DNA of 64,000 bases from Escherichia coli (GTDB lineage Bacteria > Pseudomonadota > Gammaproteobacteria > Enterobacterales > Enterobacteriaceae), in assembly GCF_003334335.1 (NCBI RefSeq), contig NZ_QOWQ01000002.1; one strand, given 5' to 3'. Positions 54,507 to 57,098 of this stretch are shown here, piece after piece (the first letter of the stretch is position 1; each line of letters starts with the position of its first letter). The translations under genes were made by a program, and so were the position numbers. Below the pieces are notes generated by a model, which was not told where the DNA came from, made no database searches, and saw only the letters and a program-made list of their open reading frames with translations.

Positions 54507-57098
54507 ATGCATCAATCTGGTTCTGTTTCTCTTTGTCGTTCCGCAATATCTGTTCTGGTGGCTACAGCGTTATATTCACCCATAGCATTGGCATCAACTG
54601 TTGAGTATGGTGAGACAGTTGATGGTGTTGTTCTGGAAAAAGATATCCAGCTGGTTTATGGGACCGCCAATAATACGAAAATCAATCCTGGCGGAGAACA
54701 GCATATAAAAGAATTTGGTGTAAGTAATAATACTGAAATTAACGGAGGGTATCAGTACATTGAAATGAATGGCGCCGCAGAATACTCAGTATTAAATGAC
54801 GGTTATCAAATTGTTCAAATGGGTGGCGCGGCAAACCAGACTACGCTCAATAATGGTGTGCTACAGGTTTATGGCGCAGCGAATGATACCACGATTAAAG
54901 GCGGGCGCTTAATCGTTGAAAAAGATGGGGGGGCCGTCTTTGTCGCTATCGAAAAGGGAGGACTACTGGAGGTTAAAGAGGGGGGATTTGCATTTGAGGT
55001 AGATCAGAAAGCAGGCGGTGCTATTAAAACAACCACGCGGGCCATGGAGGTATTCGGAACAAACCGTCTCGGTCAGTTCGATATCAAGAATGGTATTGCT
55101 AATAATATGTTGTTGGAAAACGGCGGAAGTTTGCGAGTTGAAGAAAATGACTTCGCTTATAATACCACTGTAGATAGTGGCGGCTTACTGGAGGTTATGG
55201 ATGGCGGGACTGTAACTGGCGTTGATAAAAAAGCAGGCGGAAAATTAATTGTCTCAACGAATGCGCTGGAAGTGAGTGGTCCAAACAGTAAAGGCCAATT
55301 TAGTATAAAAGATGGTGTGTCAAAAAATTATGAACTGGATGATGGTTCCGGGCTCATTGTTATGGAGGACACGCAGGCCATTGATACTATCCTTGATAAG
55401 CATGCCACTATGCAATCGCTGGGAAAGGATACTGGTACGAAAGTGCAGGCAAATGCGGTATATGATCTCGGTCGATCATATCAGAATGGAAGTATCACGT
55501 ATTCCTCAAAAGCCATCTCTGAAAATATGGTTATCAACAATGGCCGCGCTAACGTCTGGGCTGGCACAATGGTTAACGTTTCAGTCAGAGGGAATGATGG
55601 CATTCTTGAGGTCATGAAGCCGCAAATAAATTATGCACCCGCAATGTTGGTGGGTAAGGTAGTGGTTTCTGAGGGCGCTTCTTTTAGAACGCATGGTGCC
55701 GTGGATACCAGCAAAGCGGACGTTTCGCTCGAAAATAGCGTATGGACCATCATTGCCGATATCACTACGACGAACCAAAACACCCTCCTCAACTTAGCCA
55801 ACCTTGCGATGTCTGACGCAAATGTGATTATGATGGATGAGCCAGTGACTCGTTCATCAGTGACGGCAAGTGCGGAAAATTTCATTACGTTGACCACCAA
55901 TACCCTGTCGGGAAACGGCAATTTTTATATGCGTACCGATATGGCTAATCATCAGAGCGATCAGCTCAACGTCACCGGTCAGGCAACAGGTGATTTCAAA
56001 ATATTCGTGACGGACACCGGTGCCAGCCCGGCAGCAGGAGATAGCCTTACACTGGTAACAACGGGCGGCGGTGATGCTGCATTTACGTTGGGCAATGCCG
56101 GAGGCGTTGTTGATATCGGTACGTATGAATATACCTTGCTGGATAATGGCAACCATAGCTGGAGTCTGGCAGAGAATCGCGCGCAAATTACCCCTTCAAC
56201 CACTGATGTGCTGAATATGGCGGCCGCACAACCGCTGGTATTTGATGCAGAACTGGACACCGTGCGTGAGCGTCTTGGTAGCGTAAAAGGCGTTAGTTAC
56301 GATACGGCGATGTGGAGTTCGGCAATTAACACCCGCAACAACGTGACCACTGATGCGGGAGCTGGTTTTGAGCAAACATTGACGGGCCTGACGCTCGGTA
56401 TCGATAGCCGTTTCTCCCGTGAAGAAAGCAGTACAATTCGCGGCTTGATCTTTGGTTACTCTCATTCTGATATTGGTTTTGATCGCGGCGGCAAAGGTAA
56501 TATCGATAGCTATACCCTGGGGGCTTATGCCGGTTGGGAGCATCAGAACGGTGCCTATGTTGATGGGGTGGTGAAAGTTGACCGTTTTGCCAACACCATC
56601 CATGGCAAGATGAGTAATGGGGCAACAGCGTTTGGCGATTACAATAGTAACGGCGCGGGTGCTCATGTTGAGAGCGGGTTCCGTTGGGTTGACGGATTGT
56701 GGAGTGTTAGACCCTATCTGGCCTTTACCGGCTTTACCACAGATGGTCAGGACTACACGTTATCAAACGGCATGCGCGCGGATGTGGGAAATACCCGGAT
56801 ATTACGCGCTGAAGCGGGAACGGCGGTAAGCTATCACATGGACCTGCAAAACGGTACGACGCTGGAACCCTGGCTGAAAGCGGCCGTGCGTCAGGAATAC
56901 GCCGATTCTAACCAGGTGAAAGTTAATGACGATGGCAAATTTAATAATGATGTGGCTGGAACCAGTGGCGTTTATCAGGCTGGTATAAGGTCATCGTTTA
57001 CCCCGACGTTAAGCGGTCATTTGTCAGTCAGCTATGGCAATGGCGCAGGGGTAGAATCGCCGTGGAATACTCAGGCGGGTGTGGTCTGGACGTTCTGA
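54507..57098 (+). CDS. yejO: Autotransporter (type Va) with repetitive GG-module passenger and C-terminal beta-barrel ending WTF, 863 aa
   Basis: Full uninterrupted ORF; signal peptide; tandem modules GGLLEV(K/M)(E/D)GG... about 73 aa apart. Confidence 0.8.
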   Translation: MHQSGSVSLCRSAISVLVATALYSPIALASTVEYGETVDGVVLEKDIQLVYGTANNTKINPGGEQHIKEFGVSNNTEINGGYQYIEMNGAAEYSVLNDGYQIVQMGGAANQTTLNNGVLQVYGAANDTTIKGGRLIVEKDGGAVFVAIEKGGLLEVKEGGFAFEVDQKAGGAIKTTTRAMEVFGTNRLGQFDIKNGIANNMLLENGGSLRVEENDFAYNTTVDSGGLLEVMDGGTVTGVDKKAGGKLIVSTNALEVSGPNSKGQFSIKDGVSKNYELDDGSGLIVMEDTQAIDTILDKHATMQSLGKDTGTKVQANAVYDLGRSYQNGSITYSSKAISENMVINNGRANVWAGTMVNVSVRGNDGILEVMKPQINYAPAMLVGKVVVSEGASFRTHGAVDTSKADVSLENSVWTIIADITTTNQNTLLNLANLAMSDANVIMMDEPVTRSSVTASAENFITLTTNTLSGNGNFYMRTDMANHQSDQLNVTGQATGDFKIFVTDTGASPAAGDSLTLVTTGGGDAAFTLGNAGGVVDIGTYEYTLLDNGNHSWSLAENRAQITPSTTDVLNMAAAQPLVFDAELDTVRERLGSVKGVSYDTAMWSSAINTRNNVTTDAGAGFEQTLTGLTLGIDSRFSREESSTIRGLIFGYSHSDIGFDRGGKGNIDSYTLGAYAGWEHQNGAYVDGVVKVDRFANTIHGKMSNGATAFGDYNSNGAGAHVESGFRWVDGLWSVRPYLAFTGFTTDGQDYTLSNGMRADVGNTRILRAEAGTAVSYHMDLQNGTTLEPWLKAAVRQEYADSNQVKVNDDGKFNNDVAGTSGVYQAGIRSSFTPTLSGHLSVSYGNGAGVESPWNTQAGVVWTF

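Follow-up and report, generated by a model that had tools for sequence, protein, structure and literature searches.

The yejO locus in the window and in K-12

The stretch of DNA analysed here, called the window below, comprises 64,000 nucleotides (nt) of one strand of an Escherichia coli contig (NZ_QOWQ01000002.1, assembly GCF_003334335.1), and our subject is the autotransporter gene yejO that it carries. A single open reading frame (ORF) at 54507-57098 on the plus strand runs uninterrupted through 863 codons to one terminal stop, as a previous inspection of the bare letters (the sequence-only reading) had stated. Matching RefSeq E. coli genomes, found with a 3.6-kb locus probe, annotate this ORF as 'autotransporter YejO', and the near-identity of its product to the K-12 protein together with the conserved neighbours places it in the YejO orthologous group. 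The order narP, yejO, tRNA-Pro, yejM is conserved with respect to K-12. We concluded that the ORF is very probably the wild-type, uninterrupted yejO at a core chromosomal locus, encoding a classical monomeric (type Va) autotransporter of the AIDA-I/Ag43 kind. The features of the gene and its product are as follows.

54507-57098, plus strand: yejO coding sequence (ORF list and matching-genome annotation; 2 nt and one amino acid (aa) from the K-12 sequence minus IS5K)
54507-54593, plus strand: predicted Sec signal peptide, residues 1-29, cleavage after ALA (read from the sequence)
54570-54573, plus strand: TTAT, the site of IS5K in K-12, unoccupied in the window (MG1655 annotation and alignments)
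54594-56171, plus strand: passenger, residues 30-555, predicted right-handed β-helix (Pfam AIDA and Pertactin, TIGR04415, AlphaFold2, Foldseek, phmmer)
54957-55178, plus strand: module 1, residues 151-224 (self-alignment; eight short strands in the AlphaFold2 model)
55008-55229, plus strand: segment missing from the 789-aa allele, residues 168-241 (alignment to strain 1344_LBHALD)
55179-55400, plus strand: module 2, residues 225-298 (48% protein and 53% DNA identity to module 1)
55797-56171, plus strand: pertactin-like C-terminal part of the passenger, residues 431-555 (Pfam PF03212)
56193-56282, plus strand: α-helical linker, residues 563-592, predicted to run through the barrel pore (AlphaFold2 model)
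56304-57095, plus strand: C-terminal 12-stranded β-barrel, residues 600-863 (PF03797, TIGR01414, AlphaFold2, Foldseek)

In K-12 MG1655, yejO (b2190, 'adhesin-like autotransporter YejO') is annotated as a two-piece pseudogene, with fragments of 67 nt and 2525 nt split by the insertion sequence (IS) IS5K. Alignment to the window shows that the element follows nt 67 of the ORF and has a copy of the duplicated 4-bp sequence TTAT on either side. When the two fragments are rejoined without IS5K, a 2592-nt ORF results that lies 2 nt from the window gene, and only one of these differences is coding (Glu164 in the window, Ala164 in K-12). The disruption in K-12 that the sequence-only reading had mentioned is therefore real, and it has been published (PMC11005336, PMC11677980). 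The reading had named the narP-yejO spacer of K-12 as the place to check for the element; this spacer is identical to that of the window, and IS5K sits 67 nt within the ORF. The same gene, locus and spacer are thus found in both, and K-12 alone carries IS5K after ORF nt 67. The reading had also named what would refute it, namely an intact K-12 copy, with the window gene being simply the common allele. The first part did not come true, whereas the second did: the uninterrupted gene is the common wild-type state, and the broken K-12 copy is the exception. The exact protein of the window, with Glu164 (nt 54997, ORF nt 491), occurs on only 9 contigs, though it is one residue from that of K-12.

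The neighbourhood of yejO, and a second autotransporter gene elsewhere in the window, are listed below.

53540-54217, minus strand: narP, upstream neighbour of yejO
54218-54506, no strand assigned: divergent narP-yejO spacer of 289 nt, identical to K-12, 36.7% G+C
57160-57189, no strand assigned: hairpin AAAAAAACCAACC-GTAA-GGGTTGGTTTTTT, then a T-run, between yejO and tRNA-Pro (read from the sequence)
57201-57277, minus strand: proL, tRNA-Pro(GGG), downstream neighbour of yejO (ARAGORN and K-12 annotation)
57352-59112, minus strand: yejM/lapC, beyond tRNA-Pro, downstream of yejO
66-3818, plus strand: yfaL/ehaC, the other type Va autotransporter, 1250 aa (NF007285 equivalog, 2812 bits against a cut-off of 1459; identical-genome annotation)

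No IS lies between narP and yejO, in agreement with the earlier description, and the whole 289-nt spacer matches K-12. An 85-aa ORF (54219-54476, plus strand) fills this AT-rich spacer and is most likely spurious. On the other side of the gene, the hairpin is likely to act as a bidirectional intrinsic terminator. At the tRNA-Pro and the 100-nt gap after yejO, the locus match stops in or beside the tRNA in some genomes and resumes elsewhere, giving two places per record, and Shigella flexneri 1c has the remnant of a gtrIC prophage between tRNA-Pro and yejO (PMC4924310). The tRNA-Pro at 57201-57277 thus appears to be an integration site that is unoccupied in the window.

Many wild isolates of human, animal and water origin match the first 25 kb of the window at 100% identity, so that the source is an ordinary natural E. 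coli and not K-12. This part includes yfaL/ehaC, which bears out the statement that the window has two type Va autotransporter genes. YfaL/EhaC resembles YejO in belonging to the type Va AIDA-I family with a TIGR01414 barrel, and differs in its length of 1250 aa, in its POMP and autotrns_rpt passenger repeats and in being intact in K-12 too. At 9818-14437 (plus strand) lies an ORF of 1539 aa, an 'alpha-2-macroglobulin family protein' in identical genomes, for which no NCBIfam match was obtained. The gene at this position is yfaS (b4500), a pseudogene in K-12 MG1655. With yejO and yfaS, two genes that are disrupted in K-12 are thus complete in the window.

Predicted architecture of YejO and its relatives

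The protein was analysed by domain searches against Pfam and NCBIfam, by phmmer for solved relatives, by Foldseek for fold matches and by an AlphaFold2 model built from a 66-sequence alignment of diverse homologs, with a mean predicted local distance difference test (pLDDT) score of 88.6. The signal peptide that the sequence-only reading had assigned is supported by the layout of the N-terminus, in which MHQSGSVSLCR is followed by SAISVLVATALYSPIALA and, after the putative cleavage point, by ST. This corresponds to the n-region, h-region and AXA motif of a Sec signal peptide: R11 makes the n-region basic, residues 12-26 form the hydrophobic core, and ALA followed by S occupies 27-30. Residues 1-27 have pLDDT below 50 and are disordered in the model, as expected of a leader.

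Continuous short β-strands extend over residues 29-561 of the model, in β-helix rungs of about 18-19 aa. The Pfam AIDA family (PF16168) matches strongly at residues 184-245 (7.7e-24) and 257-315 (1.5e-21) and weakly over 51-171, and the strand-loop-strand repeat TIGR04415, named as an O-heptosylation target, scores 65.4 bits against a cut-off of 30. Pertactin (PF03212) covers residues 431-555 (3.2e-45), a part that by analogy is a probable autochaperone region; for residues 299-430 no specific Pfam family was matched. The predicted helix 563-592 directly precedes the first barrel strand. The C-terminal barrel claimed earlier is confirmed by PF03797 at residues 602-841 (8.8e-45), by TIGR01414 (369.5 bits against a cut-off of 16) and by 12 long strands at 600-862 in the model, and the chain ends in ...VVWTF with an aromatic terminal residue (Phe). 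In Foldseek the barrel matched the BrkA β-domain (template modelling (TM) score 0.90), EspP (TM 0.83) and the AIDA-I transport unit, and the passenger matched Ag43 (7koh, E 6e-23) and pertactin. Among solved relatives by sequence were Ag43 (5e-36), Vag8 (8e-36), TibA (2e-28), the BrkA barrel (7e-19) and pertactin (5e-18). All defining structural features of a type Va autotransporter are thus present in silico, and export is predicted.

The closest comparison is with Ag43 (Flu/Cah), which shares with YejO a β-helix of about 19-aa rungs, a pertactin-like junction and a 12-strand barrel, and whose structure 7koh is the best solved match by both sequence and fold. The two proteins are about 24% identical over the aligned structure, and YejO is shorter. 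With 131.2 bits against the Ag43/Cah equivalog cut-off of 1200, YejO is a relative of this family and not a member. Self-association, Dam/OxyR phase variation and passenger cleavage are features of Ag43. The likeness to AIDA-I and TibA, glycosylated adhesins of the self-associating autotransporter (SAAT) group, consists of the AIDA-type repeats (PF16168, TIGR04415) and the match to TibA 4q1q (2e-28), whereas the AIDA-I equivalog scores 75.5 bits against a cut-off of 1200. YejO accordingly has one SAAT trait, a passenger of imperfect repeats of about 19 aa (Pfam AIDA, TIGR04415 and the 18-19-aa strand periodicity in the model), and orthology to the Ag43 or AIDA-I equivalog is not indicated by the NCBIfam cut-offs. 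A heptosyltransferase gene of the aah/tibC type adjoins AIDA-I and TibA, whereas none stands next to yejO, flanked by narP and tRNA-Pro; Ag43 is without one too. Finally, yejO is chromosomal and core, whereas AIDA-I and TibA are borne on plasmids or islands.

The 74-residue modules and the one-module deletion

Module 1 opens with GGLLEVKEGG at residue 151 (nt 54957), and module 2 with GGLLEVMDGG at residue 225 (nt 55179). The two modules of the sequence-only reading are a real repeat of the protein, with a spacing of 74 aa and not the approximately 73 aa given there. Residues 151-223 and 225-297 align without gaps and are identical at 35 of 73 positions, with a Smith-Waterman score of 165 against 28.1 +/- 4.7 (maximum 43) in 300 shuffles. 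In the AlphaFold2 model each module has eight short strands, whereas a rung of 18-19 aa near the N-terminus has two, so that one module would correspond to about four β-helix rungs. The pair goes back to an old duplication, within the protein, of a unit of this size.

At the DNA level the repeat has largely faded. Compared as DNA, the modules are only 53% identical, and no exact repeat in the ORF is longer than 12 nt, where shuffled sequences gave a mean of 10.8 nt and a maximum of 19 nt. Tandem Repeats Finder (minimum score 30) reported no tandem repeat in yejO, and a general repeat search returned only short families of 12-33 nt with 61-88% identity, among which the 222-nt periodicity was absent. 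What is left are two in-register exact matches 222 nt apart, TACTGGAGGTTA at 54964/55186 and AAAGCAGGCGG at 55008/55230, with lengths of 12 nt and 11 nt, respectively. The earlier suggestion that internal DNA repeats could drive length variation thus held in part: a repeat capable of slippage was rejected on these grounds, leaving only microhomology, whereas a length polymorphism of exactly one module does exist in nature.

This polymorphism was found in strain 1344_LBHALD, whose YejO of 789 aa (WP_000554212.1) is without ORF nt 502-723, exactly 222 nt or 74 aa, in frame. Copies of the 11-mer AAAGCAGGCGG stand in register at 55008-55018 and 55230-55240, at the two ends of the deletion, and the junction lies on that match. 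Population frequencies here and below refer to 5426 complete E. coli genomes from RefSeq, all of which are matched by the 3.6-kb locus probe. At an identity of at least 99%, a junction probe matched 277 of the 5426, with only one further record in the band of 90-95% identity, and the exact 789-aa protein occurs on at least 1000 contigs. In E. albertii the syntenic ortholog, with 862 aa, 76% identity and the same neighbours, contains both modules, and therefore the two-module form is ancestral. In some lineages a deletion between short in-register identical stretches removed exactly one module. ORF nt 424-491, just upstream of the deletion junction, form a cluster of inter-allele polymorphisms.

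The same deletion with the same junction is present in a 790-aa protein (P0066) that belongs to a different allele group, about 6.5% diverged in DNA. As the flanks on both sides belong to this diverged group, a second independent event appears more likely than transfer, judging from the flanking sequence. Other length variants are rare and scattered. A protein of 935 aa (P0001) was considered as the three-module reciprocal product and rejected, since its 72-aa tandem duplication (residues 474-545) lies in the pertactin domain. Further examples are a 34-aa deletion in the barrel (P0004), a 40-aa deletion inside module 2 (P0017) and a 10-aa tandem duplication (RADVGNTRIL) in the barrel (P0020). 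The 771-aa proteins (P0026 and like), a group found on several dozen contigs, have their start called internally, at residue 18, and end after residue 788 without the last barrel strands; this is probably a lineage-specific nonsense allele. Considered together, the evidence fits rare historical deletions through microhomology between diverged repeats and not a switch.

Two stronger readings of these data were weighed. In one, the modules are a built-in device whose frequent recombination yields antigenic or stalk-length variation. The exact in-frame 222-nt deletion in 277 of the 5426 genomes and on at least 1000 contigs, its presence with the same junction on a second allele background about 6.5% diverged, and the 11- and 12-nt in-register matches 222 nt apart would all suit such a device. 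But the module DNA is only 53% identical, its longest repeat is no longer than in shuffled sequence and Tandem Repeats Finder detected nothing; the 277 genomes represent one junction haplotype (at least 99% identity, one further record at 90-95%), as a single ancestral event would produce; three-module alleles were not seen, the 935-aa variant being a pertactin-domain duplication; and the remaining length variants are scattered singletons. We therefore consider a length-variation device very unlikely, and module loss has the look of rare deletion mediated by microhomology and not of a programmed switch. In the other reading, removal of one module is a recurrent and selected shortening of the YejO stalk, and the 863- and 789-aa isoforms would differ in function. 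This idea derives from the presence of the deletion on two diverged allele backgrounds and in about 5% of complete E. coli genomes, and we regard it as unlikely. If it were true, a shortened stalk could tune the reach of the adhesin past O-antigen or capsule, or shed an epitope.

Distribution, selection and proposed function

The K-12 IS5 site, examined with a 100-nt probe centred on it, is unbroken in 5050 of the 5426 genomes (93%). There were about 358 split cases, and those sampled were K-12 laboratory strains. At least 80% of the 3.6-kb locus is retained in one place by 4285 genomes (79%), a figure that joins IS-split matches and is thus not a count of intact ORFs. About 20% carry deletion remnants annotated as pseudogenes, including the sequence type 131 (ST131) strain MNCRE44 and an isolate of uropathogenic E. 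coli (UPEC); in the ST131/UPEC examples 1005 or 1161 nt, plus 633 nt, are deleted. Other strains have IS1414, IS3 or IS2 within yejO. In EC416 (NZ_AP027404.1), 100% identical over the 3.6-kb probe, an IS1414 (IS256-like) is inserted in the matched interval, and this is another independent insertion at the locus, in a near-identical strain. These distributions agree with previous reports: according to one paper, every commensal and diarrhoeagenic genome has YejO and every UPEC genome has it truncated (PMC3426408, citing Wells et al., 2010), and yejO was reported missing from ST131 (PMC5654935). A scan of species-representative genomes returned only E. albertii and no E. coli locus either, and so does not delimit the range of the gene; our guess is that the E. 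coli representative may carry a truncated copy.

The main YejO protein cluster at 90% identity has 16,859 members, mostly of 863 aa. Against the E. albertii ortholog, the ratio of nonsynonymous to synonymous substitution rates (dN/dS; Nei-Gojobori, NG86) was 0.195 overall, 0.048 in the linker and barrel, 0.10 in the pertactin region and 0.22 in the modules, and against an E. coli allele diverged by 7% it was 0.21 overall. These ratios, calculated from sequence comparison, argue that yejO is maintained by purifying selection, though dispensable in several lineages.

Several observations weigh against our conclusion on the gene and its product. Independent losses have occurred by IS5, IS1414, IS3 and IS2, by two sets of large deletions and by truncation after residue 788, from which it follows that yejO is dispensable in several niches. 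K-12 yejO was expressed in only 106 RNA-seq samples (PMC10392735), a number confounded by the IS5 insertion. A scan for the sigma-70 consensus gave no site in the narP-yejO spacer (3 sites in the region, against 7.1 in shuffles); the scan also missed the hairpin at 57160-57189 and is uninformative. A full-text literature search found no functional study of YejO, most matches to 'yejo' being unrelated words, as the description of its function as poorly characterised had led one to expect. The Ag43 and AIDA-I equivalog scores are far below their cut-offs, and therefore function is not simply transferable from these proteins.

The inactivations by IS5 in K-12 and by IS1414, IS3 or IS2 elsewhere, the 1005- or 1161-nt and 633-nt deletions of the ST131/UPEC pseudogenes, the 771-aa form ending after residue 788 and the RNA-seq count could also be taken to mean that yejO is an intact-looking but functionless relic, cryptic under relaxed selection and not yet hit in this strain. 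But whether measured within E. coli or against E. albertii, dN/dS is about 0.2 for the whole gene and 0.05-0.09 for the barrel; E. albertii retains a full-length syntenic ortholog, and in E. coli the K-12 site is uninterrupted in 93% of genomes and the locus largely complete in 79%. Since a dN/dS of about 0.2 speaks for a maintained gene and not a long-dead one, a relic is improbable in our judgement. The passenger might alternatively be enzymatic or toxic (a protease, esterase or cytotoxin) and not an adhesin; residues 299-430 have no specific Pfam family, and the function of YejO is predicted from homology. But Pfam and NCBIfam detected no catalytic domain, the AlphaFold2 model is an uninterrupted β-helix with no globular insert, and the nearest relatives in sequence and fold are the adhesins Ag43, TibA and pertactin. 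An enzymatic passenger is thus extremely unlikely, and we favour a maintained, exported protein of the adhesin kind.

The identity of the gene, its domains and predicted fold, its distribution and the purifying selection on it follow from the results above; from what is known of the family, a plausible course of secretion can be proposed for YejO. The 29-residue leader would take the protein through Sec, and the β-barrel assembly machinery (BAM) would insert the 12-strand barrel (residues 600-863, with its Phe end) into the outer membrane, leaving helix 563-592 in the barrel pore. The passenger (30-555) would be threaded out and fold from C- to N-terminus, beginning at the pertactin-like end, into a stalk of 18-19-aa rungs. 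By homology, this exposed stalk would most likely serve as an adhesin or cell-aggregation factor, as in Ag43 and TibA.

The 289-nt narP-yejO spacer presumably holds the yejO promoter, and a Shine-Dalgarno-like AGGATGA stands 8 nt before the ATG. A 7-bp stem-loop, TGGGTATTTTCTGTACCCA, with a T-rich stretch (54448-54466, plus strand), about 40 nt before the start, was scored as terminator-like by the scan and is presumed to lie within the yejO 5' leader or promoter region. G+C is 36.7% in the spacer and 44.7% in the first 430 codons, against 52.2% in the whole window. In other cryptic E. coli adhesin genes such AT-rich 5' regions are silenced by H-NS. By analogy, yejO is probably silent in laboratory culture.

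The overall significance of the window gene is slight, as it is an ordinary allele of a known gene and the common uninterrupted state of yejO was already published. What is added beyond this is small: the exact one-module deletion allele with its microhomology junction. Across 5426 complete genomes the analysis reproduced what had been published, a gene that is whole in commensal and diarrhoeagenic E. coli and decayed in UPEC and ST131. This corrects the K-12-centred impression, as yejO is whole in most wild E. coli and the IS5-broken copy is a peculiarity of the laboratory lineage. The natural pair of 863- and 789-aa proteins, one predicted four-rung module apart, offers a ready-made comparison for stalk length. 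YejO is under purifying selection, and a wild-type allele like that of the window is the right template for work on its expression and adhesion.

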